64,000 nt of DNA from contig JAWXUK010000001.1 of assembly GCA_044432785.1 (NCBI GenBank), positions 145 to 64,144 on the forward strand. The letters are read 5' to 3'. Of the stretch, positions 29,104-64,000 are shown piece after piece. Source of the DNA: Eubacteriales bacterium. Its GTDB lineage: Bacteria; Bacillota; Clostridia; Oscillospirales; Oscillospiraceae. Each line of letters begins with the position of its first letter. Position 1 is the first letter of the stretch. Position numbers and translations under genes: made by a program. The notes beneath the pieces were generated by a model, which was not told the DNA's origin, made no database searches, and saw nothing but the letters and a program-made list of their open reading frames with translations.

Positions 29104-30711
29104 CTACTGCGTATAAGGATTTATTTCAGAAACTAAGGGTTCTTTCACAATTGCCTGTACCCAGTGCATCATTGTGACCACTGAGGGTTTAATTTCAGCT
29201 ATTAAATTGAATACATCGTCTTTATTTAGATTTCCACGAATGTCAATGAAGTGAATCTCAGAAAAATGAGGTGCTAAGAAACTTGCTACTGGACGAGTGA
29301 ATGAATCACATAAACAAACCATTTTTCTGGTTTCTTTAATTTTATGGTTCACTATTTTACAGTGACCTTTAACAATTAAAGAATAGACTCCATATGGATG
29401 TAAGTCATAATAGCACCAATCGAAATGAACGGGGAAAAGCAATGATTTTTCTGCTGAACCACGAATGCTAAAATTCTCTCCTTCACAAATCCAACTATAG
29501 TCAGTCTTATACTTCGGTAAGATCAGCTCAAAATCATCTAAACCCGCATAAAGCAGTCCTGTTTGCTTTCCGTAGCTACCAAGAAATATATCGGGATAGG
29601 TTATAACATCGTAATTACTTATCTCAAATTTACTGTGATCTAAGGTTACTCCCAACATATCTTCTATTTTTTCACAAACCTTTTGCGTGGCATGAAAGGC
29701 CGTACTTGTTCTCCAGTGGTGGTCAGTCCTAAAAAAAACTTCTAGTGAATTGATCTTTTCTTCAGCCATTGTTTTTCTATAATCGTACACTGACACCCCT
29801 TTTTCTTCGAGTTTTTCAACTATAATGGTTGCCCCTTCATTGAGTCCCTCTTTTTGATCCGTATAGAGAGAAAGGTTAACCGATGATAATTTATTCGGTA
29901 GTAGAACAAACAAAAAAGGGATTTCGCGCTCAGATAGATAGTGATTGAATTGACTGATGTTTTCCGCTGTTGTTTCAACTCGATTGAAATCCCATTCGAC
30001 AAATTCATGCTCACATAACCACTTCGTATTTTCTCCAATTTTATAGATATTGTTATAACATTTTTGATCCAAAAACTCAATCAGAGGCATCTCTTTTTCG
30101 TCTGGTAATTCTTCCTCCCAAAAGTCAATCTCACGTCCCATGACATAATAATTGTCCAGATAAATCATTGGATTTTGTCCATTCTCATATAGTTCCTGAT
30201 AGTGTTTTAATTTTGTAGTTACTGCTATCGCCTCAGCTGGCATATCACTTGGCTTGAGCAAAGAAAAACTTGCTTCATTTTCTCCACGCAAATAAGCAGT
30301 GTATGATTTTATTCTCGCCTGAATTTCTTCTGGCGCCTCCGCAAACAATGTTGATCCTTTTTTGAAAAATCTCTGAATATTTATGACCGAATTACTCTCT
30401 TTTTCCTCAAAAACTTGAGCCTCAATCTGGTTCCCATATAGTCTTGATGTGATTATTATACCAAGAGAAGGGTAATGTTCAATGGCATAATCAAATGACA
30501 TAATGGGTATTCCGTTTAATTTTTCTCCCTGCTTGTCTGTTGCGTTATCGCAAATACCCACAGGTAAAGAGAGTTTTTTCTTTCCAAACCATTGAAGCAT
30601 GTTCAAGCAGTCTGCCCCTGAACCAAAGAAACAAATTGCCTCCTTATCTTTGCATAGTTCGATAATTTCTTGCTCCAGTTTCTTTGCTTTATCATATTTA
30701 ATGTTATTCAT
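29104..30711 (-). CDS. DHHW-family (AlgX/AlgJ-like, SGNH-type) putative glycan O-acyltransferase with the N-terminal Rossmann-like module
   Basis: FFRTDHHWRTSTAFHA motif. N-terminus AICFFGSGADCLN...GICDNATDKQGEKLNGIPIMS. The start was moved to ATG 30711, which has RBS TAGGAG. Confidence 0.7.
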   Translation of the reverse strand: MNNIKYDKAKKLEQEIIELCKDKEAICFFGSGADCLNMLQWFGKKKLSLPVGICDNATDKQGEKLNGIPIMSFDYAIEHYPSLGIIITSRLYGNQIEAQVFEEKESNSVINIQRFFKKGSTLFAEAPEEIQARIKSYTAYLRGENEASFSLLKPSDMPAEAIAVTTKLKHYQELYENGQNPMIYLDNYYVMGREIDFWEEELPDEKEMPLIEFLDQKCYNNIYKIGENTKWLCEHEFVEWDFNRVETTAENISQFNHYLSEREIPFLFVLLPNKLSSVNLSLYTDQKEGLNEGATIIVEKLEEKGVSVYDYRKTMAEEKINSLEVFFRTDHHWRTSTAFHATQKVCEKIEDMLGVTLDHSKFEISNYDVITYPDIFLGSYGKQTGLLYAGLDDFELILPKYKTDYSWICEGENFSIRGSAEKSLLFPVHFDWCYYDLHPYGVYSLIVKGHCKIVNHKIKETRKMVCLCDSFTRPVASFLAPHFSEIHFIDIRGNLNKDDVFNLIAEIKPSVVTMMHWVQAIVKEPLVSEINPYTQ

Positions 30712-30835
30712 GCTAACACTCCTAAACTCTGTTTGTTTAAATTGTAACACAAAGTTCGCCAGTAAGTCAAGTCTAATCCCACTCCATTTGTCCTTGAGGT
30801 TGAGGTTTGGTGAGGGGTGAGTTCAAACTCAACAT

Positions 30836-30867
30836 AAAACGGAGCAGACCGAAGACTGCTCCGTTTT
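30836..30867. terminator. Hairpin AAAACGGAGCAG-N8-CTGCTCCGTTTT
   Basis: A 12-bp stem flanked by A and T runs, homologous in position to the terminator at 11620-11646 next to the DUF819 3' end. Confidence 0.5.
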
Positions 30868-30885
30868 ATTTGAATATGACTGCAA

Positions 30886-31113
30886 TTATGCGAACATTTT
30901 CATAATATTCGCCACAAGCAGCCCCTCACCGGTTCCCACAACGTAAGCGATCAGCACCATGAGCACTCCCACGGGAACGAGGGCAGGGCTGTACGAGTCG
31001 GCAAGGTTTGCGACACCACAGGTGAACATGTCTAGCTTGAAAATCTTTGCCATCACGATCATGATAGTGGAATGGATAGCCTAAATTACGAAGCCGGCAG
31101 CGATCCAGAGAGG
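30886..31113 (-). pseudogene. 3' fragment of a DUF819 gene, a degenerate duplicate of 11660-11924
   Basis: Aligns by eye base-for-base with the 3' end of the intact gene, starting at the stop codon (TTATGCGAACATTTTCAT...). It has scattered substitutions, a 36-bp internal deletion between GGCAAGG repeats, and an in-frame stop. Homology ends at 31113. Confidence 0.8.
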
Positions 31114-31348
31114 TTTCGTAGCTTGACGCAAGAAAATATCCTTGCTGTTGTCACTCAAGGGAAAATCGCCACCTAGGGCACAACCTCCTCGGCGAGGACA
31201 AAAGTTGTCACAATTGTCATAAAAAGTTTGTGTTGACTAGGGGGACTCCATGTTTTCACCAACTACCTTGAAATTTAGCGATAAGGAGATTAAGTTTAGA
31301 CCCGAGTATGTCGATATATAGAACAGTGCATGAGGGGAGGAGACCGAA

Positions 31349-32152
31349 ATGAATCTGATAGACTTGAAAGAAATCGAGCAGTTTTGTGCTGACCTTGCCA
31401 TTAAGGCGGGCGAGAAAATCATGGAGGTCTACGATGACCCCAATTTGTTCTCTCAAACAGAGGTCAAAGGGGATAAAAGTCCATTGACCCTTGCGGATAA
31501 GCGAGCAAATGACCTGATTGTGGCAGGATTAAAGAAAAAATTTCCTGATTTCGCCATTCTGTCCGAGGAAGAAAAAGACGACCTAAGCAGACGGGAGAAT
31601 CCCTTCTGCTTTATTGTCGACCCCTTAGATGGTACCAAAGAATTTATCAAAAGAAACGGACAATTTACCGTCAATATCGCTCTTGCCGAGCACCAAAAGG
31701 TGATCATGGGTGTGATCTACGTCCCTGCTACTGGAGATTTATACTATGCTTCCAAGGAAAACGGAAGTTTTTACAAGAGTCCACAGGGAGAGGTCGCTCA
31801 AAACAAGGTTTCTACCCAAGTGGGGTTAAGAGAGCCTAGCAAAATCCGTCTTGTGATGAGTGCTTCCCATGGAGCGCCTGAAATGGATGCACTGATCGAA
31901 AAATATAACTTCACCAATTTTGTGAAAATGGGCAGTTCCCTCAAGGGTTGCCTTGTGGCACGAGGGGAAGCTGAAATTTATTATCGCCACGGTCCTACCT
32001 GTGAGTGGGACACAGCTGCCATGCAATGTATTGTGGAAGAGGCAGGTGGAGTATTCCGTCAGATGGATGGGAGCGAGATGGTCTATAATCGGGAGAATAC
32101 CCGAAATGAAAAAGGTTTTTTTGCAATAAATTCGAAAGAAAATCAATTATAA
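31349..32152 (+). CDS. 3'(2'),5'-bisphosphate nucleotidase (CysQ / inositol monophosphatase family)
   Basis: ILSEEE, VDPLDGTKEF and WDTAA motifs of the IMPase/CysQ fold. RBS GGGGAGGAG. Confidence 0.8.
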   Translation: MNLIDLKEIEQFCADLAIKAGEKIMEVYDDPNLFSQTEVKGDKSPLTLADKRANDLIVAGLKKKFPDFAILSEEEKDDLSRRENPFCFIVDPLDGTKEFIKRNGQFTVNIALAEHQKVIMGVIYVPATGDLYYASKENGSFYKSPQGEVAQNKVSTQVGLREPSKIRLVMSASHGAPEMDALIEKYNFTNFVKMGSSLKGCLVARGEAEIYYRHGPTCEWDTAAMQCIVEEAGGVFRQMDGSEMVYNRENTRNEKGFFAINSKENQL

Positions 32153-32165
32153 TACGAGGAACTAT

Positions 32166-34490
32166 ATGATAACGATACAACCCTCTATCTCGGATATCCC
32201 CTCTAAAAAATCAGTGGTAATTATTTGGGGGACGAGTGCACAGGCAATCAAATTAGTGCGTTTTTTCAAAGAATATCATTTCGAAGTACACGCATTTTGT
32301 AATAATGACCCCGAAAAATGGGGCGAAACTTTCATCGGCTTTCCGATCATTTCACCTAGCGAACTGGAAGATCTAACCAAGGAATCTGGCTTTGATGTCA
32401 TAATCCAGCTCTTAGGGGACGAAAAATCCTGCTCCGAGATTGCTGCACAAGTAGAGTCTTTTGCCATTAGCAGAATCCTCTACCCAAATGATGCGTGGGA
32501 TTTTTGCGAAACTTTCGTACAAGAGAAACAGCAACTATCAAAACAAAACGAAGAAACATTAGAAGAGAGGTTGCGAGCTCTTTCTCACGCAAGGGATGTG
32601 GACCTGTGCACCCAATTAGAAGAGGGATTTTATCTACCCTATCAAGCGCAATTCTCAGCTAATTTTGATAAAAACAAATCCCTTTTAGTGCAATATCCTT
32701 ATTTATTTCAAAAGGAAATGATCGCTCCTAGTGAAACAGAGTTTTCTGTTTTTCCAGTAAATGAAGAGAAAATTTACTGTTACCACAAAATGAATGGTAA
32801 TTACATCTTACTCGAAACCTATTCAGAGCACGAAACTAAGCATTTTTTTGAAAATTTAGATGATCCGATTTTCGTTTCGAATGAATTTAACGAATTTAAT
32901 CTAAAGTTCTTGGTAGATAACGTAAGAGCGAGCGAATTAGTTGCCCAGGATAACCATATATATCTCCAGTATGACAATATGGAAGAATTTTCTTTTCTAT
33001 TGTACTATGTCGATTTTGAGCCACTGCTAAAAGATGAAAAAATTGTTTTCCTAATTGGGGAAGAAGAACGAAATCTCTGTCCCATCAATTTCAAAGAAAA
33101 ATTCAACATTGATTATGATTCCATGGAAGTGCAAGAAGTACAACCTCCTGAAATCAAACGAATTACGGTACAATTGCATCTAAGCCCATTTTCGGGCAAT
33201 GCACTTATGAACGAGATCTTGGATGGTCATTCTGCAATCTTGAGCGCAAATGGGGGATTCTCAAAATTTGGCTTTTATAATTTTGATGAAAAAAATAATA
33301 TCCTTCCATTTGAATCTTTTCTAAATGATATGAAAAGAAATATCGATGCAAAGAATATCCCGCAATTAGAGCTCATCTGCTGTCATCTAAAGCTACCTAA
33401 ACATACACATATGGAACCAAGTGTCGAGACAAAGTTAGAAGCCGCTACCGTTTTTTGGGGGCATCTAGTGGCATTGAACGAAGAGTTCCCGGTTTCTACA
33501 CTGAAAGATTGGATTGTTTCATTGTATATCGCTTACGTGAGAACAAGGGAACTACAACTACCTTCTCGAATAGCACCTATGATTCATCACTTTGAGCACG
33601 ATGTCAGAGCTGCGCCCTATCATTATTCTCAGCTGCGCTTGATGTATGATGATTTCGACTACACCTACTACTATTTTCCCATGAGGGACTTGTTTCCACG
33701 AAAATTATCTGGTGTAATGTTCACCGACAATGATTTTCGTAAACTACTAGACGTAGTTGCTAGCACAGCGGAGCTCGAAACCAACCTGAAAAACTGCATT
33801 GGAACTTGGTTCGCAGTAATGGGACCCTTATTGATAGAGTACAATAATGTCCCCTTAACCCCTAGAACACTGCAAGCAATTCGATTTGAAGATCTAAAAC
33901 TCAACCCAAAAGCGACCCTAACCGCTATTTGCCGTCAATTCAATATCCCGTATAGCGATATCCTTCAGCTTTGCACGAAAAATCACAAGGGTTACGAATT
34001 CTACAACCCCACTCTCACTGAAGCCGCCAAAACAGGATTTCATATCATGCCACTCTACAGAGAAGGTTACGACTATCTCTCTCTTGAGGAGAGAAAATTT
34101 TACGAATCGGTCTTTGGATCAACGATCACCCCATATGAATATACGAGAGAGTATACCAAGGAAAATGATCCGATGATTTCCCTTGAGGAGCGATACAACC
34201 AACCCTTTGCGTTTGAGCAAAAACTCGTGGAGCGTCTAGCCCAATATAGTAGCCAGGACTTCACGGATGAAATCGAGAAGAATAGGCGCATTATGATAGA
34301 TAACCTAGTGAAGAACAGTGCTATGCAGAGCAAATATTCCGTAACATTGCTACGGCCAGTCCCTGAATTGCTGGTCCATGAGTTATATCAAAACCAGTCT
34401 TCTCTACCAAAACTTGAGGATCTTGATGTGACATTTTTAGATGCACCACTTCTCTCTACAAAACAAGAAAAGAGGGACTGTGATGAATAA
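32166..34490 (+). CDS. Large multidomain protein (774 aa): N-terminal Rossmann-like module plus a C-terminal region with sulfotransferase-like motifs. Candidate phosphoramidate (or sulfo) transferase.
   Basis: N-terminus VVIIWGTSAQAIKLV...FCNNDPEKWGETFIGFPIISPSEL. LSPFSGNALM (about 33180-33210) resembles a 5'-phosphosulfate-binding loop. RFEDLKLNPKATLTAICRQFNIPY (about 33882-33960) resembles the YEDL...FLGL tail of sulfotransferases. It overlaps the next gene by 8 nt. Confidence 0.4.
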   Translation: MITIQPSISDIPSKKSVVIIWGTSAQAIKLVRFFKEYHFEVHAFCNNDPEKWGETFIGFPIISPSELEDLTKESGFDVIIQLLGDEKSCSEIAAQVESFAISRILYPNDAWDFCETFVQEKQQLSKQNEETLEERLRALSHARDVDLCTQLEEGFYLPYQAQFSANFDKNKSLLVQYPYLFQKEMIAPSETEFSVFPVNEEKIYCYHKMNGNYILLETYSEHETKHFFENLDDPIFVSNEFNEFNLKFLVDNVRASELVAQDNHIYLQYDNMEEFSFLLYYVDFEPLLKDEKIVFLIGEEERNLCPINFKEKFNIDYDSMEVQEVQPPEIKRITVQLHLSPFSGNALMNEILDGHSAILSANGGFSKFGFYNFDEKNNILPFESFLNDMKRNIDAKNIPQLELICCHLKLPKHTHMEPSVETKLEAATVFWGHLVALNEEFPVSTLKDWIVSLYIAYVRTRELQLPSRIAPMIHHFEHDVRAAPYHYSQLRLMYDDFDYTYYYFPMRDLFPRKLSGVMFTDNDFRKLLDVVASTAELETNLKNCIGTWFAVMGPLLIEYNNVPLTPRTLQAIRFEDLKLNPKATLTAICRQFNIPYSDILQLCTKNHKGYEFYNPTLTEAAKTGFHIMPLYREGYDYLSLEERKFYESVFGSTITPYEYTREYTKENDPMISLEERYNQPFAFEQKLVERLAQYSSQDFTDEIEKNRRIMIDNLVKNSAMQSKYSVTLLRPVPELLVHELYQNQSSLPKLEDLDVTFLDAPLLSTKQEKRDCDE

Positions 34491-34983
34491 AGTTTACTGG
34501 ATTACGGGACTCTCTGGTTCTGGAAAAACAACCATCGGCAGAGCATTACAGGCTGAACTACAAAGGGAAAATCAAACAGTCATATTTTTAGATGGCGATG
34601 AGATGCGCCCCCTCCTCTGCCCTGACCTAGGATATACAGAGGAGGATCGTAGAATTTGCGCCTTACGCTATGCAGGGCTGTGTAAATTACTCCATGACCA
34701 AAATTTCACCGTCATTTGCTGTACAATCTCCATGTTTCATCAGGTAAGGGATTGGAATCGAGAGAATATCGACCGTTATTTTGAGATTTATATCAAAGTA
34801 AATGAGAATACTCTGGAGCAGCGAGATCAAAAAGGGATGTATTCCCAGAAAACCCAAAATATGACTGGAAAAGATATTCTAGCAGAATTTCCACGCAATC
34901 CTGATTGCACAGTGGTTAACGACCACGGTAATATAGAAGAAATTATCAATCAAATTTTACATGTAGAAGAGGACACAAAATGA
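34483..34983 (+). CDS. APS-kinase-fold P-loop kinase. In this context it is Cj1415-like (cytidine diphosphoramidate 3'-kinase) rather than CysC.
   Basis: VYWITGLSGSGKTTIG, FLDGDEMR, and the fold-typical length of 166 aa. The start was moved to ATG 34483. Confidence 0.75.
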   Translation: MNKVYWITGLSGSGKTTIGRALQAELQRENQTVIFLDGDEMRPLLCPDLGYTEEDRRICALRYAGLCKLLHDQNFTVICCTISMFHQVRDWNRENIDRYFEIYIKVNENTLEQRDQKGMYSQKTQNMTGKDILAEFPRNPDCTVVNDHGNIEEIINQILHVEEDTK

Positions 34984-35762
34984 GTAGTAACTTAAAACTA
35001 GGCGATTTCACACAAATGGCAAAATACTATAAGAACAGACCTACCTATTCTTTAGAAGCACTGAAGCTAATTTCTGGCTATATCGAAAATTCTATGAATC
35101 AAAGCATTGAAAAAGTCGCTGATATAGGTGCTGGAACAGGAAAACTGACAGAAAATCTAAGCCAACTTGGTTTTTCGGGATTAGCTGTTGAACCTAATGA
35201 TGCAATGCGTGAAGAGGGAATGAAAAACGAATTATGCGAAAGATTTTCCTTTCAAAAGGGCGCCGCTGAGGAAACCGGACTGGACGAAAATTTTGCGCAG
35301 TGGGTGTTGATGGGAAGTTCTTTTCACTGGACGCAGCACAAGGATGCATTAAAAGAGTTCCATCGCATTCTAACCCCAGGTGGCTTTTTCACCGCTATCT
35401 GGAATCCTCGAGATATCGAGAAAAGTCCGCTACACACAACAATTGAATCAAAAATACACGAAATCGCGCCTAATATTGTTCGAGTATCATCAGGCTCATC
35501 CAACAATTTGAAGGATGTAGAAGAAAAGTTGTTATCAACAAATTATTTCAGTGATTTATTCTTTGTAGAAGTTCCTTTCGAACTAGAAATGAGCAAGCAA
35601 CGCTATATCGACACCTGGAAATCAGTAAATGATATTCAAGTGCAAGCAGGCGAAGAAAAATTCAAGGAAATTCTTGCCATGATCGAAACAGAGATTAGCG
35701 GCATGGATTCTGTTCTCGTTCCTTACAAAGCAAGAGCATGGACCGTTAGAAGTACAAAATAA
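34980..35762 (+). CDS. Class I SAM-dependent methyltransferase
   Basis: Motif I VADIGAGTGKLT. ATGA overlap with the upstream kinase. Confidence 0.8.
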   Translation: MSSNLKLGDFTQMAKYYKNRPTYSLEALKLISGYIENSMNQSIEKVADIGAGTGKLTENLSQLGFSGLAVEPNDAMREEGMKNELCERFSFQKGAAEETGLDENFAQWVLMGSSFHWTQHKDALKEFHRILTPGGFFTAIWNPRDIEKSPLHTTIESKIHEIAPNIVRVSSGSSNNLKDVEEKLLSTNYFSDLFFVEVPFELEMSKQRYIDTWKSVNDIQVQAGEEKFKEILAMIETEISGMDSVLVPYKARAWTVRSTK

Positions 35763-35778
35763 ATTTATAGGTGGCGCC

Positions 35779-38118
35779 ATGAAAAAGCTTCATTTTTCCA
35801 CAAAAGCAGAGACATTACAGCGGTTAGAGGGGAAACTCTCTACCGCTCAGGTCTTGCCTCAATATTCCTTTACGGTTGAAGAATACACGAAAAATCCCGA
35901 GAAAATCTCCCATGAGTTGCAAGATTCCATCAAAAACTGGGGGAATCCATCTGTCATTGTGCGATCTTCTGCGTTATCGGAAGATGGAATCACACAATCC
36001 AATGCAGGAAAATACCTCTCCATTGCAAATGTGCGTGGAGAGGATTCTTTGCTTCGTTCCATTCAAGAGGTCATTGCGTCGTATGATCCAGACCCACAAA
36101 ATCAGGTTCTTGTTCAACCCATGTTGGAAAAGATCCAAGGGTCTGGCGTCATATTTTCGGTAGATCCACAAAATTCAAGCCCTTACTTCGTCATAAATTA
36201 CGATGACACCACAGGTTCAACCGATTCCGTCACATCTGGACAAGGGAAAAACCTGAAAACCTGCTATTTATACCACGGGAAAGACTCCGACCACCCAATC
36301 ATTTCAAAATGCAAGGCGACCACCGAGGAACTGATGGTTTGTTTCGAGACAAATTACATTGATTTAGAATTTGCAATTTCAAATAATACCTTTTATGTTC
36401 TTCAGGTGCGACCTTTGATTGTTCGCACGCAAATAAGCTCGACAAATTCAAAAAGTGATGCCAAAGAACTAGAGCAAATTCACACCTATATCAGCAACGC
36501 AATGAAGAAAAATCCCTATTTGTACGGTGATTCCACCATTTTCGGTGTCATGCCGGACTGGAATCCTGCTGAAATCATCGGCATCCGTCCAAAAGCACTT
36601 GCAACTTCTCTGTACAAATATCTCGTCACAGATGGGGTGTGGGCATATCAGCGAGACAATTATGGCTATAAAAATTTGCGTTCCTTCCCTCTGATGATTG
36701 ATTTTTGTGGACTTCCCTACATAGATACACGGGTTAGTTTCAACTCATTTATTCCAAAAAATATCGACCATGACCTCAGTGATAAGTTAACCAATTATTA
36801 TCTCAGGAAACTCGAAGAAAATCCAACCGAACAAGATAAAGTTGAATTTAATATCATTTTATCGTGTTTCACCTTTGATATTGAAAAAAGACTGGAGATT
36901 TTGAAGAAAAACGGCTTCACTGATAGCGAATGTTCCAGCATCAAAGAAGCTCTCCTCGAACTCACAAACCATATCAGTCACGCAGATGATGGTCTGTGGA
37001 AAAAAGATATGAAAAAAATCGAGCAACTGGAAGAGCGTTTAGAGATCATTTCTAGCAGTGATTTGAGCACATTAGATAAAATTTATTGGCTGTTAGAGGA
37101 CTGTTCTCGCTACGGAACCTTACCATTTGCAGGACTTGCTCGGGTCGGTTTTATCGCTGTGTTGTTGCTAAAATCTATGGTAACCGAAAATTTATTGTCT
37201 CAGGAAAATTACGAACAATTTATGGGGAGTTTGAATACTGTAAGTTCGCAGATGTCGGAAGATTATACAGGGCTATCATCGGAACATTTTCTCGAAAAAT
37301 ACGGACATTTACGCCCTGGAACCTATGATATTTTATCCCCTCGATATGATATGGCACCAAAATTGTACTTCTCTGCTCCGCAATCAGAGAAGCCGAAAGA
37401 ATCCCGAAAAGAGCAGGAAGAATTCAAGCTATCTCTGCAACAATACCAGCAAATTCAAACGCTCATGACCGAGCAGGGCTTCGATCAAGACGTGTTATCC
37501 CTCTTCCAGTTCATTAAAGTTGGTATCGAACAACGGGAATATTCTAAATTTATTTTCAGCAAAAGCCTGTCGCTATCACTAGAACTGGTTGCAAAACTAG
37601 GAGAGGAATACGGATTTTCCCGTGAGGACATGGCATTCTTTGATATCATGAAAATCAAAGAGCTCTACTCTAAATCAGCCGATATTACGCAAGAAATCAA
37701 AGATTCCATCCTAAAAGGGAAGGTTCGATACCAAGAATCCCTTAAAATCACCCTCCCTCCTGTGATCACTCACCCAAATGAGGTTTATGAATTTCATCTC
37801 TCTGAAGCAACACCGAACTATATCACCCAAAAAACCACCACAGGAGCAGTCCTTGCAAATGATCTCAACAGCAACACAATTCCTGGAAAAATTCTTTTAA
37901 TTCCGTCTGCAGACCCTGGCTTTGACTGGATTTTCGCTCAACCGATTTTAGGATTTGTCACGGCATATGGAGGCGCAAATTCGCATATGGCAATCCGTGC
38001 AAATGAACTGGGGATTCCTGCTGTCATTGGGGTCGGGCAACAACTTTTTGAGGGGTTGCAAGAATGTTCTTTGTTGCAGATCGACTGTTCCAATAAGAAA
38101 ATGGAGATTTTGTCATGA
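35779..38118 (+). CDS. PEP-utilising-enzyme-family kinase (ATP-grasp domain plus swivelling phosphohistidine domain, no PEP/pyruvate TIM barrel). Cj1418-like L-glutamine kinase candidate.
   Basis: 779 aa. N-terminal PPDK_N-like region (VIVRSSALSEDG). C-terminal YGGANSHMAIRANELGIPAV with the His736 codon at 37984-37986. The protein ends 43 residues after that His. Confidence 0.7.
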   Translation: MKKLHFSTKAETLQRLEGKLSTAQVLPQYSFTVEEYTKNPEKISHELQDSIKNWGNPSVIVRSSALSEDGITQSNAGKYLSIANVRGEDSLLRSIQEVIASYDPDPQNQVLVQPMLEKIQGSGVIFSVDPQNSSPYFVINYDDTTGSTDSVTSGQGKNLKTCYLYHGKDSDHPIISKCKATTEELMVCFETNYIDLEFAISNNTFYVLQVRPLIVRTQISSTNSKSDAKELEQIHTYISNAMKKNPYLYGDSTIFGVMPDWNPAEIIGIRPKALATSLYKYLVTDGVWAYQRDNYGYKNLRSFPLMIDFCGLPYIDTRVSFNSFIPKNIDHDLSDKLTNYYLRKLEENPTEQDKVEFNIILSCFTFDIEKRLEILKKNGFTDSECSSIKEALLELTNHISHADDGLWKKDMKKIEQLEERLEIISSSDLSTLDKIYWLLEDCSRYGTLPFAGLARVGFIAVLLLKSMVTENLLSQENYEQFMGSLNTVSSQMSEDYTGLSSEHFLEKYGHLRPGTYDILSPRYDMAPKLYFSAPQSEKPKESRKEQEEFKLSLQQYQQIQTLMTEQGFDQDVLSLFQFIKVGIEQREYSKFIFSKSLSLSLELVAKLGEEYGFSREDMAFFDIMKIKELYSKSADITQEIKDSILKGKVRYQESLKITLPPVITHPNEVYEFHLSEATPNYITQKTTTGAVLANDLNSNTIPGKILLIPSADPGFDWIFAQPILGFVTAYGGANSHMAIRANELGIPAVIGVGQQLFEGLQECSLLQIDCSNKKMEILS

Positions 38119-38726: not shown

Positions 38727-38729
38727 CTT

Positions 38730-39458: not shown

Positions 39459-39586
39459 CTAGTAATATAATGTTTAGTGCGGTAACTTAACTATATCCGA
39501 TTTTTGGAGTTTCTTCCACTTTTTTTGACGAGTGTCCAAGATGTGTGAGATACCCACATTTTTTAGCCAATTGGTGATATTAGCAC

Positions 39587-39615
39587 TTGCGAAATTGCAA
39601 TATATGTGGTATAAT
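39587..39615 (+). promoter_or_regulatory. Internal sigma-70-type promoter
   Basis: -35 TTGCGA (39587-39592), a 17-bp spacer, and an extended -10 TGgTATAAT (TATAAT at 39610-39615). Confidence 0.5.
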
Positions 39616-39645
39616 GAAATAATTTATAAGAATGAGGTAATATAC

Positions 39646-51161: not shown

Positions 51162-51201
51162 CGAAATTTCTTATATTATGTGTGAAAGGTGGCAGAAAAA
51201 T

Positions 51202-52500: not shown

Positions 52501-52539
52501 GAATAGATCTATTTTATGTCCGAAAGGGGAGGGTGAGCC

Positions 52540-53862: not shown

Positions 53863-53885
53863 GAGCAGAGAGAGGACAAGAAACC

Positions 53886-55190: not shown

Positions 55191-55286
55191 GAAGTGGCGT
55201 CCATAACGGCTTTATGCGTTATGAGAACATTTATTTGTTTTTGAGAGCTAAAATTGTATTGATAGGAATAAAGGAGAAACTTCACT

Positions 55287-56495
55287 ATGCCTGAAAAGAA
55301 AATAATTCCCATTATCTTTGCCACAGATGATGGCTATGCCCCGTACCTTGGGGTTGCACTTCATTCCTTGATTGTCCATGCCAGTACAGAACTTGAATAT
55401 CTTGTGCATATTTTATACACAAAATTGGCCGCAGAACATAGAAGACGGCTGTGTAACATGGCGCAAAGCCATGTGCGGGTGGAGTGTGTGGATATACGAG
55501 AGAAAACCGATATCTTCAAAACTTATAGTACCTCGAAACACTTTAAAGTTGAGTCTACTTATCGCTTGTTGATACCAGAACTTTTCTCGCAATTTGATAA
55601 AATTTTGTATTTAGATTGTGATATTATCGTGCGAGAGGATGTGGCGCTTTTATACCAAACGGATCTTGGAGAAAATGTTTTAGGGGTTGGGGAAGTTGTT
55701 ATGGGACCAGAATTCAAACTCCATTTTCAAACAGTGTTAGGGGTAGAGGAAGAAGAGGGATTTAATTCGGGTGTTTTGCTTGTTAATACAAAGCAGTTTC
55801 AAAGAGAAGGTATCAAGGAAAAATGCCTGAATTTATTATTGGAAGATTGGGAGTCAGTAGAAAAAAAATATATTTATCCGGATCAAGATGTATTGAATAT
55901 CACTTGTACTGGAAAAACAAAAAAATTCCCAATTTCTTGGAATTTCGAGTGGTTGTATTCTTTAGAGGGAGAAGACATAGACACAAGTCTCTATGAGTTA
56001 TCACAATCAAGCCTTAAAATATACGAAGAAAATGTAGAAGACCCCAAAATTATCCACTATATCTCGCCAATAAAACCTTGGAATAGACCAGACCTTCCTT
56101 TTGCGGATATATTTTGGCGTTTTGCTAGGGAAACGGTATTTTATGAAGAAATCTTAAAAAATGTCATGGTTACCACGGTGAAGAAAGCCCCAAACCCTGC
56201 CACTTTTCCATGGAAAGAGGTTCCTGCGGGCTCTGTCATCGTGATTTATGGGGGTGGCTACTTAGGTAGAAATCATCTAGAGCTGATGGTAAAGACAAAT
56301 TATTGCTTTGTAGCCGCCATTTGCGACCAAAATGCAAAGAGAATCAAAGATTTTCTCCTTCCTGTTGTGAGAAAAGAAGAGCTTTCCTCTCTGTCATTTG
56401 ATTACATCATTATTTCTCTTATGGATAGTGACGTGAAAGAAGCGGTAAAACGAGATTTGATAGAGCTTGGTATTGCACCTGAAAAAATAAAGTAA
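55287..56495 (+). CDS. GT8 (LgtC-like retaining) glycosyltransferase with the C-terminal module
   Basis: IPIIFATDDGYAPYLGV, YLDCDIIV (DxD), FNSGVLLVN and DQDVLN. The module VIVIYGGGYLGRN...LIELGIAPEKI lies at about 56229-56492. Confidence 0.85.
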   Translation: MPEKKIIPIIFATDDGYAPYLGVALHSLIVHASTELEYLVHILYTKLAAEHRRRLCNMAQSHVRVECVDIREKTDIFKTYSTSKHFKVESTYRLLIPELFSQFDKILYLDCDIIVREDVALLYQTDLGENVLGVGEVVMGPEFKLHFQTVLGVEEEEGFNSGVLLVNTKQFQREGIKEKCLNLLLEDWESVEKKYIYPDQDVLNITCTGKTKKFPISWNFEWLYSLEGEDIDTSLYELSQSSLKIYEENVEDPKIIHYISPIKPWNRPDLPFADIFWRFARETVFYEEILKNVMVTTVKKAPNPATFPWKEVPAGSVIVIYGGGYLGRNHLELMVKTNYCFVAAICDQNAKRIKDFLLPVVRKEELSSLSFDYIIISLMDSDVKEAVKRDLIELGIAPEKIK

Positions 56496-56511
56496 GCAAA
56501 GAGGTTATTTC

Positions 56512-58784: not shown

Positions 58785-59948
58785 ATGGAAAAAAGATTAC
58801 AAGATGCACCAAAAGAAATTTGGGAGTATGATCAGGAATCCTATCAAAGGCTCACAGATCATGATGTGCATTATTCTGAAATGGTGCCTTACGAGCGAAA
58901 ATTTGTTCATGGTCTCATTCGCTACATGAAACCCAAAAGAATTTTAGAGATTGGTGTTGCAGAAGGTGGAGGGAGTGTTGTCATTTTAAATGCCATCGAG
59001 GACACTCCCGAGACCACCCTTACCTCGATCGACCTGATGGAGACCTGTTGGAATGATAGTACCAAAGGGGTGGGATTTGCTTGTTTAGAAAAATATCAAA
59101 GCAACAAACAGTGGGAGATGCATCTAGGAAAAGACCCTTCAGAGATCATCGAAGAGCTCGCAAAAGAGGGGAAATTTGATTTTTTGATTCTAGATACGGC
59201 GCATGTTCATCCCATCGAAAGTTTAAATTTTCTATCCGTATTTCCGTTTTTGACCGAGAATTGCACGATGGTTCTGCATGATATTGGTGAGTATGAGGGA
59301 AATGAGGAGAGATACAGCAATTTTCCTGCTGTTCCATTTGCGTGTAAACTATTATTTGACACCTTGGTCGGTGAAAAGAGAGTGTTACCCCCTTCGAAGT
59401 ATCCGATGGATAGAGTGGTTTCTAATATTGGAGTGTGTCAATTTAACATAGACACTAAAAAATATATCGGAAATATTTTATCTATGCTTCTTTTTCCATG
59501 GGGATTGCAACCAGATAGAGTGGATAGTATTTTCGCATTATTAGAGAGATACTATGATGAGGACGCTGTGCAAACTTTGGAGCGGAGCTATCAATACAAT
59601 CGTTTTTTCGAGCTAGGATGGGGACAGACACGGAATAACAATCCCCTGCATTACAATAAAAAGAAGATTATATTCTATGGATATGGAGACTTTTTTCAAA
59701 AGCTGTGGAACACGCCTTCTTTTTTCTCGGAACCAATTGTAGAAGTATGGGACAAGGCAGACAAAGAGAGTACGGAAGAGGGATTACTCCTTCGAAAACC
59801 CGATTATAACTCGACTGAAAAAGAGGAAATTTTAATTGTTTTGTCCACTGCACCCAAGGATATCGAGGTTCAGGAGAGTATCAAAGCAGAGCTCAAGGGG
59901 TATGGGTTCCCTCGTGTGGTTCATTATTTAGAGTTGGATAGGGCATAG
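58785..59948 (+). CDS. Class I SAM-dependent methyltransferase (CmcI/Methyltransf_24-like) with the C-terminal module
   Basis: ILEIGVAEGGGS...FDFLILDTAH. The module IIFYGYGDFFQK... lies at about 59658-59945. Confidence 0.7.
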   Translation: MEKRLQDAPKEIWEYDQESYQRLTDHDVHYSEMVPYERKFVHGLIRYMKPKRILEIGVAEGGGSVVILNAIEDTPETTLTSIDLMETCWNDSTKGVGFACLEKYQSNKQWEMHLGKDPSEIIEELAKEGKFDFLILDTAHVHPIESLNFLSVFPFLTENCTMVLHDIGEYEGNEERYSNFPAVPFACKLLFDTLVGEKRVLPPSKYPMDRVVSNIGVCQFNIDTKKYIGNILSMLLFPWGLQPDRVDSIFALLERYYDEDAVQTLERSYQYNRFFELGWGQTRNNNPLHYNKKKIIFYGYGDFFQKLWNTPSFFSEPIVEVWDKADKESTEEGLLLRKPDYNSTEKEEILIVLSTAPKDIEVQESIKAELKGYGFPRVVHYLELDRA

Positions 59949-59998
59949 GTTTTTCATTTAAAGTAGTATCCATGAATTTATTGGTAGGAGGCGAACTC

Positions 59999-61363
59999 AT
60001 GAGTCAGATCACAAAAAAACAAATACTAGAAATTCTAGAAGACATCAAAGAGGGGACCCATTCCCTTCGTGACCTAAAAGAAGAGTCCTTATCCTCGGTC
60101 TGGATGGAAAACATTCCGGTCTTTGGTCAGCTTATTTGTATGGTAGGGGATCATTTACTGGAATTGAGTGAGGAATATGCGCCTTTAGTGGAACTCATCG
60201 AGGGATATTGTCTCAACTTGCAGAAAATCGAAACAGAAAATCTGGAGATAAAAGAGAGAAAAAAAACCGCCAAAGAAATGTTGGATCTTTTGCAAAAATT
60301 GCAATTTGAATGCAAAAAACGATTGCCAGAGGATCGCAAAAAACTAGTCTTTTTTCCATATCTATATGCGATGTGGGATTCACTGGAGAGCATTTGGCGA
60401 GCAGCGGTAGAGAGTGGAGAATACGATGTTTTGGTGGTACCCATTCCCTATTATGAGAAAAATCCAGACGGCTCTTTTGGCAAAATGAATTATGATGGAC
60501 AACTCTATCCAGATGAAGTGCAAGTGGTGGACTGGAAAAGTTATGATGTGGCAGCACAAAAACCAGATGTTGCCTATGTGCACAATCCCTATGACGACAT
60601 GAATTATGTGACCAGTATTCATCCTAATTTTTATAGCAAAAACCTCAAGGAGCATGTTGGGTCCTTGGTGTATGTTCCTTATTTTGTCTGCGTGAATGAT
60701 GTGATTACCGAGGATTATTGTGTGAATCCTGTCACAATTTCGGCGGATTATATCATTGTGCAGTCAGAAATAGTGAAAGAAGCGTATGTGGATGCGCTAT
60801 ATCAGTTTGGGAAAAGTAATCAATTATCGTGGAACAAAAGGGAGATTAGCAAAAGAATCCTTCCTTTAGGTAGCCCTAAGTACGATAGTGTCAAACAAGA
60901 CAGTGAGTTCGATATTCCAAAAGAGTGGGAATCTGTCCTCTATAAAGAAGATGGCATAGCAAAAAAAGTGATCTTCCTCAACAGCACGTTGAGCACTGTG
61001 CTCGCCCTTGGGGAGGAGGCTCTTGATAAGCTAGAGGATAATCTTGCTACCTTTGAGCAAAAACAAGACAGGATAGCACTATTGTGGCGACCCCATCCTC
61101 TGATGGAGAGTACTCTTAAATCTATGCGCCCTCAGTGGTATCAACGATATCTCTCCATCGTGAAGGGGTATCGAAACGGTAACTGGGGAATCTTTGATGA
61201 CAGCAAAGACTTTACTCGTGCTGTGGCAGTCAGTGATGCCTATTATGGCGATCATGCAAGTTCTGTGGTGGACGTCTTTGAGAAGGCGGGAAAACCAATT
61301 ATGATGCAAAACTATAAAATATTATATCAAAGCGAATACCATGAAAAAGAGGGGGTGGGGTGA
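59999..61363 (+). CDS. TagB/TagF-like CDP-alditol (glycerol/ribitol) phosphotransferase candidate
   Basis: The C-terminal LWRPHPL...VSDAYYGDHASSVVDVFEKAGKPIM resembles the HP and SS motifs of Glyphos_transf enzymes. ATG 59999 has RBS TAGGAGG. Confidence 0.5.
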   Translation: MSQITKKQILEILEDIKEGTHSLRDLKEESLSSVWMENIPVFGQLICMVGDHLLELSEEYAPLVELIEGYCLNLQKIETENLEIKERKKTAKEMLDLLQKLQFECKKRLPEDRKKLVFFPYLYAMWDSLESIWRAAVESGEYDVLVVPIPYYEKNPDGSFGKMNYDGQLYPDEVQVVDWKSYDVAAQKPDVAYVHNPYDDMNYVTSIHPNFYSKNLKEHVGSLVYVPYFVCVNDVITEDYCVNPVTISADYIIVQSEIVKEAYVDALYQFGKSNQLSWNKREISKRILPLGSPKYDSVKQDSEFDIPKEWESVLYKEDGIAKKVIFLNSTLSTVLALGEEALDKLEDNLATFEQKQDRIALLWRPHPLMESTLKSMRPQWYQRYLSIVKGYRNGNWGIFDDSKDFTRAVAVSDAYYGDHASSVVDVFEKAGKPIMMQNYKILYQSEYHEKEGVG

Positions 61364-62580: not shown

Positions 62581-62616
62581 ATCTGTCAAAAAATTTACAG
62601 TGAGTTCCTCCCCAGA

Positions 62617-63330
62617 TCAAGCTCTCCGAACCTTATCCTTCATGAGATAGCCCTGCCTTTTTATAGCAGGTGGCAGCCACTCGTTGGCGGAATAAATTCT
62701 TCTATTTTTTAGTAAAAACCCAGAAAAGTCGGGCTTTGTACGTCCAAACATGTTCACGCATTTGGCGTTGTTATGACACCGCCCACCCGCAGAATTCATA
62801 CTTTGAATTAGCTCATTTTCCTTGCTGAAATTCTTGAATTTGTGGCTGGCGCACTGACTTCCACGGTCAGATTGTGGGATACATCCTTTCAAGTCGTGCT
62901 TCTCTAGAGCGTGTTAGTACCTTACAAGGACTAAATCTATTTCCATATTGTCCTTCATCGCTATAACAAGGCATAGATTGTCATAACAGTCGAAAATTCT
63001 ACTTAAATACAAGCTTTTGTCCAAACAAGGTGAATTGTCACGAAGGACAAGAAAAGCCACCCTGGGGGTGCATGGAATTTCAGTAGTGTCGGTTACAACC
63101 ATTTTGCAACGTTTTTCGGCGGTGAATCCTCTGTTTAGACCATTATCTTCTTTTTGTGTATTTTTCATCGCTTTTAGAATTCTGAAGGCTCTCAGCTCTG
63201 GCGTTTATGAACTGACTCCTAATTTTGCTCTCGTGTATATCTTTGTAGCATCTTCTATTCCGGGGGTGTTTCATCCTTGCTGGTTGTTTTACTATATCAC
63301 AGATTTTAGGAAAAAACTTTAACTTTCAAT
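62617..63330 (-). mobile_element. IS3-family transposase (OrfB / rve integrase) remnant with multiple stops
   Basis: Fragments TAEKRCKMVVTDTTE...LYLSRIFDCYDN and QSDRGSQCASHKFKNF...IQSMNSAGGRCHNNAKCVNMF match the DDE core (WVTDITY...YLS.I.DL; HSDRGSQY...QSMSR.GNC.DNA). No intact frame. Confidence 0.65.
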
Positions 63331-63348
63331 GTACCTTATCAGATAGGG

Positions 63349-63468
63349 GATTAAGATTAGGTTTGAGTGTGTCGATATATTTACCAGTGTATGAGGGAAT
63401 GAGTTCGAAAAGAGTCTAAGGATTTGAAAGAAATGGAGCAGGTATTGTGTGCTTGTCGCTGATAAAGT
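63349..63468 (+). repeat. Degenerate copy of the cysQ-like leader and first ~19 codons (homologous to 31288-31406)
   Basis: GATTAAGATTAGGTTTGAGTGTGTCGATATAT...GATTTGAAAGAAATGGAGCAG aligns with GATTAAGTTTAGACCCGAGTATGTCGATATAT...GACTTGAAAGAAATCGAGCAG. The start codon is lost. Confidence 0.7.
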
Positions 63469-63555
63469 AAGATCATTGGGTGTTTTAGGGATAGTCGGTA
63501 AGAAACTTACTAAAACATGATATGATAGATCAACAAGATTTAGAGGAGATAGGGT

Positions 63556-64000
63556 ATGAACTATGAAAAAGAAGAGATCATAGAAAAAATTTCAGGTTGT
63601 CGAGCGAAAAAACTGTGTATTTTTGGTGCAGGAACTAACGGGAAGTTGTTTTGTGAAAAATTTAAAAAGGTGCAGTTTGAAATTGATTCATTTTGTGACA
63701 ATAATTCGGAACTTCATGGTGAATTTATTCATGGTTTTCCTTGTATTTCCCTAGAAATACTACAACAGGATAAAGAGGAAACTTTGGTTGTAGTTTCACC
63801 GGATGAATCCGAAGGGATTGTCAGCCTATTAAAAGAAAAAGGGTTCCCTTTTGTAGTTTTGAAAGACGAAATTAATTTTTATGAGTACTATATAGAAAAT
63901 ATAGAATTAAATATCGTAAATCACTGTGATTTAGATTGTCAATTTTGTAGTCATTTTTCTTCGATTGCACCAGAGTATTGCGTCCCTTTTGAAGCATTAG
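63556..64000 (+). CDS. Radical SAM enzyme with the N-terminal Rossmann-like module; partial, running off the window end, and not in the ORF track
   Basis: Hand translation from ATG 63556 (RBS GAGGAG) gives MNYEKEEIIEKISGCRAKKLCIFGAGTNGKLF...FCDNNSELHGEFIHGFPCIS...NIVNHCDLDCQFCSHF (CxxxCxxC). Confidence 0.7.
   Translation, partial: MNYEKEEIIEKISGCRAKKLCIFGAGTNGKLFCEKFKKVQFEIDSFCDNNSELHGEFIHGFPCISLEILQQDKEETLVVVSPDESEGIVSLLKEKGFPFVVLKDEINFYEYYIENIELNIVNHCDLDCQFCSHFSSIAPEYCVPFEAL

Follow-up and report, generated by a model that had tools for sequence, protein, structure and literature searches.

The question raised by the locus is why one small domain should be attached to so many unrelated glycan enzymes. 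In the window, the whole stretch of 64,000 nucleotides analysed here, the same nucleotide-binding-type domain of about 90 residues was confirmed on 11 enzymes of seven families (Table 1).

Recurrence of one module in the window

All 11 segments proposed in the sequence-only reading translated in frame and could be aligned with each other over about 88 aa. Leave-one-out HMMs, in which three close GT2 paralogues were dropped together, recovered every module significantly (E(Z=1000) from 2e-10 to 3e-3), and the proposed relatedness of the segments was thus upheld. The weakest copy was that of the FkbM methyltransferase with 13.8 bits, followed by those of the CmcI-like methyltransferase (16.6 bits) and the DHHW-like acyltransferase (17.9 bits). 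Also a profile constructed of 49 modules from other organisms, including no window sequences and searched against all six reading frames of the 64-kb window, found exactly these 11 modules with E-values from 7e-25 to 1.8e-8. The next match had an E-value of 0.17, and the ordinary Rossmann enzymes of the window (UDP-Glc dehydrogenase at 56512, UXS at 57846 and SDR at 46924) were left unmatched. Some pairs of window copies are only 14–25% identical, as could be expected if the resemblance were due to chance or to a generic Rossmann motif; this reading, of practically negligible probability, was ruled out by the gap in the external profile search together with the leave-one-out results, and the strong GT2c copy and the weakest copy were also modelled with the same fold.

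The modules of GT2b, GT2c and GT2d are mutually 55–59% identical and the GT8 module is nearest to them despite the unrelated catalytic domains, while the nearest window relative of the radical SAM module (copy 4) is the GT2a module with 33% identity. Pfam identified the partners as AlgX/DHHW-like (E 2e-13), FkbM (1e-13), Methyltransf_24 (2e-10), four GT2 (up to 2.5e-39) and GT8 (2e-48), and both radical SAM partners have the CX3CX2C motif. The sole Pfam match of the 774-aa protein, Sulfotransfer_3, was below threshold (E 0.002), indicating a weak sulfotransferase-like region. The database gene call of GT2d is 434 aa, and the second radical SAM gene runs past the window end.

Table 1. Module copies, given as HMM envelopes, and other features of the window.
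Feature	Position	Strand	Content or partner	Partner ORF	Support and motifs
Flagellin C-terminal domain remnant	27952-28473	+	Directly upstream of locus		Pfam Flagellin_C E 9e-19
Glycan-biosynthesis genes	31349-62580	+	26 soluble, co-directional, including 9 module genes		Pfam scans
Copy 1	30367-30651	-	AlgX/DHHW-like acyltransferase, N-terminal	29104-30750	External HMM 34.5 bits, E 1e-9; GSGxxC, ICDN
Copy 2	32202-32489	+	774-aa protein, N-terminal	32166-34490	External HMM 50.3 bits; degenerate, GTS and N replacing D
Copy 3	39835-40125	+	FkbM methyltransferase, behind ~60-aa helical extension	about 39646-40704	External HMM 30.5 bits, E 1.8e-8
Copy 4	49580-49858	+	Radical SAM enzyme, C-terminal	48032-49861	External HMM 55 bits
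Copy 5	50886-51158	+	GT2a, C-terminal	49872-51161	External HMM; stored PF22674 match
Copy 6	52222-52497	+	GT2b, C-terminal	51178-52500	External HMM 79.9 bits
Copy 7	53566-53841	+	GT2c, C-terminal	52540-53862	External HMM and AF2 model
Copy 8	54915-55187	+	GT2d, C-terminal	53859-55190	External HMM 83 bits; stored PF22674 match
Copy 9	56223-56492	+	GT8, C-terminal	55287-56495	External HMM 76.7 bits; stored PF22674 match
Copy 10	59652-59939	+	Methyltransf_24 (CmcI-like clan) methyltransferase, C-terminal	58785-59948	External HMM 37 bits, E 1.6e-10
Copy 11	63598-63879	+	Second radical SAM gene, N-terminal	63556 to >64000	External HMM 63.5 bits; canonical GAGTNG, FCDNN, then CX3CX2C

Family, fold and known relatives

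The repeated element was shown to be a truncated Rossmann-type domain, with the order β1, glycine-rich loop, α1, β2 (terminated by Asp), β3, β4 and a last helix at the C-terminus, and a member of the Pfam family PF22674 (C2185-like_N; founder CA_C2185, PDB 2G6T). Stored Pfam matches place PF22674 on GT2a, GT2d and GT8 of the window itself (E ≤ 1e-5) and also on relatives of the window proteins, and most FkbM orthologues carry it together with PF05050. When the window was scanned with PF22674.2, only the GT8 copy was matched, below the threshold (17.2 vs 27 bits). The module was further shown to be sister to the N-domain of PglD/NeuD/VioB, to CoA_binding_3 (WbaP/PglF/WbpM) and to the NAD-binding domain of Rex. 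The likeness to the first two, already seen in the sequence-only reading, was borne out by the profile matches in the PDB (3nkl 3e-10, Rex 2vt2 8e-9, 2g6t 8e-6, VioB 8e-5). The AF2 model of the GT2c module (pLDDT 95.1) had 2g6t_A as its top PDB match in Foldseek (TMq 0.75, rmsd 2.4 Å, 91 columns), and the full-length FkbM protein was modelled with pLDDT 94.6 and pTM 0.91.

Neither the fold nor the family is new, as PF22674 is already catalogued though functionally unstudied. The literature search found no publication on the function of the domain or on the locus-wide multi-enzyme pattern, and the earlier description of the module as undescribed therefore holds for its function but not for the domain. 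Since the founder has no known function, membership in the family gives no mechanism.

The domain is present in two structural-genomics entries, 2G6T and the FkbM fusion 2PY6. CA_C2185 (2G6T) is the best structural match and the profile alignment reaches its C-terminal GI..EKIL tail, but its domain is joined to another, uncharacterised C-terminal domain. The 2PY6 protein of Methylobacillus flagellatus has the same order as the window FkbM protein, with a helical extension, the module and then the FkbM domain. The two were matched over 366 columns (Foldseek E 9.8e-18), while the other matches span only the methyltransferase domain of about 200 columns, and the module profile matches 2py6 residues 53-112. 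However, the proteins share 20% identity and the TM-score is only 0.5, so the domain orientation differs. The N-domain of 2PY6 has no described function or ligand.

The PglD/NeuD/VioB N-domain (PF17836), in which the nucleotide part of the NDP-sugar substrate is bound, has the pattern GAGGxG...(F)xD(N/D) and a half-Rossmann fold of three to four strands in common with the module (VioB TMq 0.65), and PglD_N was matched by 36 of 88 relatives; 7txp is a TDP-sugar complex. PF17836 is, however, always followed by a left-handed β-helix acetyltransferase, whereas the module occurs at either end of GT2, GT8, radical SAM, methyltransferase and other enzymes, and NCBIfam NeuD_NnaD matches reached only 12–26 bits against a cut-off of 160.8. 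CoA_binding_3 (PF13727) of the large phosphoglycosyl transferases and the PglF/WbpM dehydratases is, like the module, an accessory, non-catalytic domain on catalytically unrelated glycan enzymes. The top PDB sequence match 3NKL is a CoA_binding_3 fragment, while WbaP itself reached only E 0.12; there the domain is placed behind a membrane bundle of four helices and forms a dimer with a swapped β-hairpin, whereas no membrane segments are present in the proteins of the window. In Rex and CoA_binding (PF02629), weakly matched by several window copies, β1–β4 are aligned with the module including GxGxxG and the β2 Asp, but Rex has an N-terminal winged helix, a complete Rossmann fold and a swapped C-terminal helix, while the module, a shorter unit, is attached to enzymes. 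Methyltransf_14 (PF08484; the C-terminus of sugar C-methyltransferases, e.g. 4RV9) is likewise a small Rossmann-like appendage of an NDP-sugar tailoring enzyme and was matched by 16 of 88 relatives and weakly on rSAM1 and rSAM2. The match is nevertheless marginal (4rv9 E 0.014), and the domain is larger (160 positions) and belongs to one enzyme family only.

Setting of the locus and distribution of the module

The flagellin remnant upstream of the locus matches residues 213-303 of B. subtilis Hag (phmmer E 3e-22), and its reading frame is broken near 28000-28030. The flagellin N-terminal D0/D1 domain was not found in the window, and the remaining fragment is adjoined by plasmid-like genes. In the hydropathy check of the locus, TM-like segments were in no case present as a membrane protein, and neither hydropathy nor Pfam scans revealed Wzx, Wzy, PGT or an ABC transporter in the locus. 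The CA_C2185 gene is located inside the flagellar glycosylation island of C. acetobutylicum, adjoining PseG (PMC13317340 supplements). The solubility of all the proteins, the lack of Wzx, Wzy and PGT, the upstream flagellin remnant and the setting of CA_C2185 make it probable that the locus represents a flagellin-glycosylation island and not a capsule locus. Flagellin genes are present inside the related loci L004 and L022, the neighbouring genes include NeuB, NeuC and PseB-type genes, and the 25 commonest neighbour families contain no export machinery. It is at least strongly suggested that also the module-rich loci of other Clostridia look like flagellin-glycosylation islands, the link to flagellin being based on three of about 30 loci and the setting of the founder.

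At the superfamily level, the module was matched in 6,665 representative clusters at E ≤ 1e-3 and in 225 at E ≤ 1e-10. It is placed N-terminally, C-terminally, in stand-alone proteins of 93–130 aa, or in tandem arrays of 2–4 copies with a period of about 145 aa, and about 15 glycan-enzyme families beyond those of the window were found as further partners. The partners seen include GT2, GT4, GT8, GT32-like, WbsX, DUF4422, LicD, TagF-like and cytidylyltransferase proteins, class-I, FkbM and MT24 methyltransferases, radical SAM enzymes, pyruvyl transferases and hexapeptide acetyltransferases. All 28 related genome loci had 2–11 module genes inside ≤20 kb, and the multi-enzyme pattern is thus routine for the lineage. 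The fusion to many enzymes in one locus, emphasised in the sequence-only reading, is real here but not exceptional, and the architecture described there as abnormal for a capsule locus, while probably not that of a capsule locus, is the routine one in related loci. The objection raised in the same reading, that the module could be a known domain routinely fused in ordinary loci, applies in part, given PF22674 and the 28 loci.

Candidate functions of the module

The best explanation, to which we give a probability slightly above even, joins the PF22674 identity, the context of probable flagellin-glycan enzymes and a predicted nucleotide binding by each copy. Among 322 distinct modules, the top-conserved positions are GxGxxG and the Asp closing β2 (G 97%, GxG 93%, third G 80%, Asp 96%), the residue before the glycine loop is aromatic in 100%, and the pattern GAGxxG...(F/V)xD(N/D) aligns with the nucleotide sites of VioB and Rex. 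At the sequence level, this conservation favours nucleotide binding over pure docking. Each copy would most likely bind a nucleotide moiety, with the phosphates held by the glycine-rich loop and the ribose diol by the Asp of β2. One candidate ligand is the NDP/NMP portion of a sugar nucleotide, which would be anchored as the substrate by analogy to PglD/VioB; another is a free nucleotide that would be sensed in a regulatory role, comparable to UMP in WbaP. In WbaP, the homologous domain is a binding site for UMP/UDP/UTP and also the dimer interface (PMC10942596), and a similar dimerisation role may coexist with the predicted binding. Against nucleotide binding, the full GxGxxG is kept in only five of the 11 window copies and in the copy of the 774-aa protein the second Gly and the Asp are both missing, so some copies may not bind a nucleotide. 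The fold itself also partly requires the glycine loop and the tight turn between β1 and α1, and the partners already bind differing cosubstrates (NDP-sugars, SAM, CTP, probably acyl-CoA/PAPS), which makes a common ligand not obvious. The tandem arrays and module-only proteins would be explained at least equally well by a role as scaffold or in avidity.

According to the docking idea of the sequence-only reading, modules would pair with each other or with tandem-module scaffolds to form a cytoplasmic glycosylation complex resembling dockerin/cohesin or PKS docking. Most dimer contacts of WbaP come from the homologous domain (PMC10942596), tandem and stand-alone modules exist, a large share of the genes per locus carries the module, and the GT8 and radical SAM modules are nearest to those of catalytically unrelated GT2 enzymes. 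We still consider docking rather unlikely: the top conservation is in a ligand-type fingerprint rather than on any separate patch of the surface, and N- and C-terminal modules fail to separate into clearly complementary classes (top matches C–C 72 and C–N 25, N–N 36 and N–C 27). The C-terminal copies of the window are not preceded by linker-like low-complexity sequence, and the FkbM module is modelled as rigidly built in and not tethered, likewise in the crystal structure 2py6. That the module recognises an acceptor common to all the enzymes, either a cytoplasmic nucleotide-linked glycan intermediate or glycosylated flagellin, is improbable. The acceptor could be common to glycosyltransferases and tailoring enzymes with differing donors, all of them soluble, and the fingerprint would suit an NDP-linked acceptor, while tandem arrays could provide avidity for multiply glycosylated flagellin. 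We know, however, of no NDP-oligosaccharide carrier in flagellin glycosylation. The module is also found on cytidylyltransferase-like enzymes, which make activated donors and do not act on the acceptor, and known flagellin glycosylation is direct transfer to Ser/Thr (PMC4441256). Very improbable is an inert appendage, a decayed Rossmann remnant that would have neither ligand nor partner, aid only folding or solubility and have spread within these loci by gene duplication. The degenerate fingerprints of the 774-aa, FkbM and CmcI-like copies and the GT2b–d modules, simply duplicated along with their genes, would agree with such decay, but Gly and Asp are conserved in modules of only about 29% mean identity, which indicates purifying selection on a site, and many unrelated families have acquired the module independently at either terminus.

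If the modules bind nucleotides as predicted, the enzymes of a pathway, otherwise unrelated, would have a handle in common under either ligand option. The multi-enzyme pattern of the window is also found in many loci of gut Clostridia, and the data at least strongly suggest that the module is a promiscuous accessory domain of soluble glycan-building and glycan-tailoring enzymes in Lachnospiraceae and other Clostridia.

Homology and family identity of the module copies

The region 29104–64000 contains 28 ORFs. All 11 segments singled out in the sequence-only reading proved to be in-frame translations at the positions assigned to them there, with an aligned length of about 88 residues and the common pattern (I/V)-(Y/F/W)-G-x-G ... 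(V/C)-D-x-N ... G-x-P-(V/I) ... D-x-h-h-I ... L-x-x-x-G-I-x-x-E-K-I. Leave-one-out HMMs, in which three close GT2 paralogues were removed as one group, scored each of the copies with E(Z=1000) values from 2e-10 to 3e-3, the lowest scores being those of the N-terminal copy on the FkbM methyltransferase (13.8 bits) and the copies on the CmcI-like (16.6) and DHHW (17.9) proteins. When the whole window, translated in all six frames, was searched with an HMM of all 11 copies, no further copy scored above 7 bits. The most stringent of the three tests against chance was an external profile of 49 foreign modules without any window sequence, which recovered exactly the 11 copies (E 7e-25 to 1.8e-8; next match E 0.17). 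Together the three tests show that the likeness of the modules is not due to chance, and the relatedness originally proposed for the segments was borne out by the leave-one-out HMMs and the external profile. The ordinary Rossmann enzymes of the locus, UDP-glucose dehydrogenase, UXS and an SDR, were unmatched by the module profiles.

Pfam scans also agreed with the partner families first assigned: AlgX/DHHW-like, FkbM, two radical SAM proteins (both with CX3CX2C), four GT2, GT8, Methyltransf_24, and the 774-aa protein, in which a sulfotransferase-like match was found only below the threshold. A conserved motif, F-P-(Y/W)-H-L-F or F-P-W-x-x-V-P-x-G, lies directly before β1 in tandem-module proteins (database proteins P0001–P0016; related loci L016 and L017) and recurs in the window GT8 and GT2b–d copies ('FPWKEVPAG', 'KFPxEL'). 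Because of this conservation, the module unit may extend slightly beyond the 88 aa that were scored.

A Pfam scan with PF22674.2 (C2185-like_N) matched the GT8 copy alone, whose 17.2 bits fall short of the cut-off of 27. The stored PF22674.3 matches included GT2a, GT2d and GT8 at E ≤ 1e-5, with GT2b and GT2c faint. Stored Pfam hits place PF22674 also on many orthologues of the window radical SAM and FkbM proteins, and include no such match for the window FkbM protein itself (P0268). The Pfam and NCBIfam scans run directly on the modules gave sub-threshold matches only (CoA_binding, PglD_N, Methyltransf_14, C2185-like_N, the N-terminal part of NeuD_NnaD, and Rex). Among 177,635 PDB sequences, the profile of a 60-sequence module alignment (A3) matched residues 19–89 of 2g6t_A, the structure of the family founder CA_C2185, with E 7.9e-6, the region tested for founder homology being residues 1–91 of 2G6T. 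It also matched the WbpM-type N-domain 3nkl (3e-10), Bacillus subtilis Rex (8e-9) and VioB (8e-5), and marginally the sugar C-methyltransferase 4rv9, the FkbM protein 2py6 (residues 53–112) and WbaP.

The proposed structure search on an isolated module gave a concordant result. The AF2 model of the GT2c module (pLDDT 95.1) has a β-α-β-α-β-α half-Rossmann fold, and its top structural match in the PDB was the N-domain of 2g6t_A (TMq 0.75, rmsd 2.4 Å), with 3nkl, VioB and Rex-family proteins next in rank. For the FkbM protein, which carries the weakest copy, an AF2 model of the full length (pLDDT 94.6, pTM 0.91) aligned with the 2py6 crystal structure over 366 columns, while all its other matches covered the methyltransferase domain alone; the match to 2py6 means that a module–FkbM fusion has been structurally solved since 2007. 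The module belongs to PF22674, and the window adds new members to this family. Literature searches on PF22674, C2185, 2G6T and HI1244 found no description of the domain, and those on flagellin glycosylation in Lachnospiraceae none of the module. The word 'undescribed' in the sequence-only reading does not apply to the domain as such and stands for its function and its sharing by most enzymes of the islands, both of which appear to be undescribed in the searchable literature.

Distribution and fusion partners

When 1.84 billion representative proteins were searched exhaustively with the profile, 6,665 clusters matched at E ≤ 1e-3, and 225 did so at E ≤ 1e-10, counts which apply to the superfamily level. 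A word-index homologue search with the module alignment gave no matches. In the best 150 of the 6,665 clusters the module is N-terminal, C-terminal or internal, and these matches include tandem arrays of 2–4 modules with a period of about 145 aa as well as near-solitary modules in proteins of 93–130 aa. Some of the proteins P0001–P0016 consist largely of 2–4 tandem modules. The partners in the best matches and related loci include glycosyltransferases (GT2, which dominates, GT4, GT8, GT32-like/Caps_synth, WbsX and DUF4422), phosphotransfer or activation enzymes (LicD, TagF-like, cytidylyltransferase-like) and methyltransferases (class-I, FkbM, MT24). Further partners are radical SAM enzymes, polysaccharide pyruvyl transferase, DUF1919 and hexapeptide acetyltransferases.

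When one genome per species was scanned, 28 related loci were identified; the query was the GT2-type sub-alignment, which biases the set toward GT2-bearing Lachnospiraceae. The majority belong to Lachnospiraceae, the others to Hungatella, Agathobacter, Acetatifactor, Parablautia, an Oscillospiraceae MAG and rumen Treponema. All 28 carry 2–11 module genes within at most 20 kb (L003 11, L007 and L008 10 each). On one further contig there are nine or more, and radical SAM enzymes bear six of these. The 11 copies on seven families in the window are therefore typical of the lineage rather than exceptional. The sequence-only reading had held that this is not normal capsule-locus architecture; the sharing by seven families is real, but the same pattern recurs in every related locus. 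The possibility it had allowed for, a known domain routinely fused to such enzymes in ordinary loci, applies in part, the family being catalogued and the pattern lineage-typical.

GT2-plus-module genes were also seen in a spirochaete (L010 and L024, rumen Treponema MAG), and FkbM-plus-module orthologues in Paenibacillus, Propionispira and Epulonipiscium, so the domain is not confined to Lachnospiraceae. These lineages are mostly flagellated.

Type of locus and other features of the window

Pfam scans of the 27 complete locus ORFs found no Wzx, Wzy, phosphoglycosyl transferase or ABC family/exporter, and a crude hydropathy scan found no membrane proteins among them. Nor do the 25 commonest neighbour families of the related loci include export genes. 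A capsule or Wzy-type locus was rejected, since genes for initiation, flipping and polymerisation are absent. The locus encodes precursor enzymes (CDP-ribitol-type IspD with SDR, UDP-Glc dehydrogenase, UXS, PMI, ribulose-phosphate epimerase and nucleotidyltransferases), a PPDK-like enzyme, transferases and a sulfation set (APS kinase, CysQ-like phosphatase).

A flagellin remnant, 630 bp from the first module gene, is 5'-truncated and has a frame break near 28000–28030 (Table). The remnant region as a whole lies at 26700–28476, and no flagellin N-terminal D0/D1 domain was found anywhere in the window. Either the adjacent mobile-looking block has truly truncated the gene at its 5' end, or there is a junction of the MAG assembly here. 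Of the related loci, only L004 (Hungatella) and L022 (Parablautia muri) have intact flagellin genes beside them, and the neighbour genes of the related loci include NeuB, NeuC and PseB-type enzymes. According to a 2026 survey (PMC13317340), CA_C2184/CA_C2185 lie inside the Clostridium acetobutylicum flagellar glycosylation island CA_C2165–CA_C2205, adjoining PseG. The soluble-only enzymes, the upstream remnant, the flagellin genes beside L004 and L022, the NeuB/NeuC/PseB-type neighbours and the island of the founder point to a locus that is probably a flagellin-glycosylation-type island and not a capsule locus.

Pfam scans found no Maf/MptE-like or TPR match in the window for a flagellin-directed transferase. 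A 463-aa protein has homologues in six related loci, including versions of 840–850 aa that adjoin the Hungatella flagellin gene (L004 2432–4954), and is a candidate for this transferase. At E ≤ 1, Pfam gave nothing useful for it or for the proteins at 40804 and 61360.

Features of the window besides the module genes
Feature	Position	Strand	Remarks
306-aa ORF	193–1113	−	no Pfam match at E ≤ 1
999-aa ORF	1152–4151	−	no Pfam match at E ≤ 1
Phosphonate cassette	7281–11522	−	669-aa fusion of two nucleotidyltransferase-type domains and PEP mutase, then TPP enzyme (phosphonopyruvate decarboxylase-like) and Fe-alcohol dehydrogenase
ParB, ParA, RepA_N-type replication initiator	14720–19776		
Complete Wadjet system (JetA, JetB/DUF4194, JetC, JetD)	20140–26687		between replication-partition genes and flagellin remnant
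Minimal nucleotidyltransferase motif fragment (LFGSYAR...SDYDIFV)	~26730–26980		just upstream of flagellin remnant
Variable-domain-like ORF, ~400 aa	26750–28378		frame differs from that of the conserved flagellin C-terminal domain (to 28473)
Flagellin C-terminal domain remnant	27952–28473		Flagellin_C 9e-19; Hag residues 213–303, E 3e-22
Putative sulfation group	31349–34983		CysQ-like inositol-monophosphatase-family protein, 774-aa module protein, APS kinase
Conserved block	34441–39458		APS kinase, class-I methyltransferase, 779-aa PPDK_N/PEP-utilizer, GATase-like, MobA-like nucleotidyltransferase
463-aa protein	59972–61363		candidate flagellin-directed transferase
Interval before last radical SAM gene, ~970 bp	62581–63555		only ORF a 101-aa TTG ORF (63017–63322), not convincing

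The best plasmid-database matches of the initiator N-domain lie on plasmids of about 0.5 Mb of Monoglobus pectinilyticus and Pusillibacter faecalis, because of which the 66.6-kb source contig (MAG) may be part of a megaplasmid or chromid. The gene content of the phosphonate cassette suggests synthesis and activation of 2-hydroxyethylphosphonate, possibly as another glycan decoration. The CysQ-like protein, the weak sulfotransferase-like region of the 774-aa protein and the APS kinase suggest that the glycan is sulfated in a PAPS-dependent manner; the scanned ORFs showed no ATP sulfurylase. The conserved block is kept nearly en bloc in the uncultured Eubacterium sp. locus L014 (10892–16274; E 2e-39 to 1.5e-233), and its methyltransferase/PPDK-like/NTP-transferase cassette may correspond to the flagellin phospho-amino-acid cassette of Clostridioides difficile CD0241–0243 and Pseudomonas aeruginosa PA1088–1090. 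Rfam gave no match anywhere in the window, including the interval before the last radical SAM gene, where the external-only profile found no module remnant.

Possible function of the module

Across 322 distinct modules with a mean identity of about 29%, the best-kept sites are the pre-loop aromatic residue (Y/F/W, 100%), the glycines of GxGxxG (97, 93 and 80%) and the Asp at the end of β2 (96%), with N/D two residues past this Asp in 77%. Family-wide, the module shows the classical Rossmann nucleotide signature, GxGxxG after β1 and an acidic β2 end, and in the comparison of the A3 profile with the PDB its conserved sites line up with those at which VioB and Rex bind nucleotide. By analogy, we infer that the module binds nucleotide and works like the accessory domains PglD_N and CoA_binding_3. 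It would then have one of two roles, to anchor a sugar-nucleotide substrate by the NDP part, as happens in PglD/VioB, or to sense free nucleotide, as does the homologous domain of WbaP, which binds UMP, UDP and UTP, mediates inhibition by UMP and makes the dimer interface (PMC10942596). Among CoA_binding_3 domains, uridine-nucleotide binding with dimerisation is known from WbaP only. The rigid integration of the module in the FkbM protein (pTM and 2py6 match) fits an intramolecular role.

Membership in either accessory family was rejected. In PglD/NeuD/VioB the N-domain is followed by a left-handed β-helix acetyltransferase, whereas Hexapep is absent from all 11 window proteins, and TIGR03570 scored the modules at 12–26 bits against a cut-off of 160.8, over model positions 1–89 only. 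In PF13727 (CoA_binding_3) proteins, the Lg-PGTs and the dehydratases of the PglF type, a four-helix TM bundle precedes the domain and a PGT or dehydratase catalytic domain is fused to it; the window modules are without TM-like segments, none is joined to Bac_transf or Polysacc_synt_2, and PF13727 is absent among their Pfam matches.

Against nucleotide binding, the full GxGxxG is present in only 5 of the 11 window copies (GxG in nine, the Asp in ten), and the partner enzymes already bind varied nucleotide cosubstrates. The tandem-module and module-only proteins would suit a scaffold or avidity role, and together with the degenerate copies and varied cosubstrates they keep alive a docking function, in which the modules associate with each other to hold the pathway enzymes together. 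This we consider unlikely; a division of N-type and C-type modules into complementary docking classes was rejected as evidence, as the two showed only weak enrichment and separation. Recognition of a shared acceptor by the module is a more speculative variant. It is also rather improbable that PF22674 modules organise a cytoplasmic glycosylation metabolon, by either of two routes. The modules would pair mutually and with tandem-module scaffolds, so that the glycans of flagellin would be made on a soluble assembly line resembling a cellulosome, or all would hold on to the same nucleotide-linked glycan carrier, and the chain would be built and tailored on this before transfer. If true, this would be a previously unrecognised coordination of dozens of enzyme families in gut Clostridia.

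With nucleotide binding as the preferred reading, its mechanism proposed by analogy, the module is real, widespread and tractable by experiment, and not a new kind of element. PF22674 is catalogued without an assigned function and no literature on it was found, so that biochemical work on a modest scale would close a real gap and would tell whether the nucleotide sensing and dimerising of the WbaP domain extend to soluble pathways. The immune system meets major antigens in the flagellins of gut Lachnospiraceae, whose glycans are to our knowledge almost unstudied. Being common to most enzymes of the putative islands, the module offers a cheap genomic marker for them and a single experimental handle, with which the coordination or regulation of many unrelated enzymes could be brought to light.
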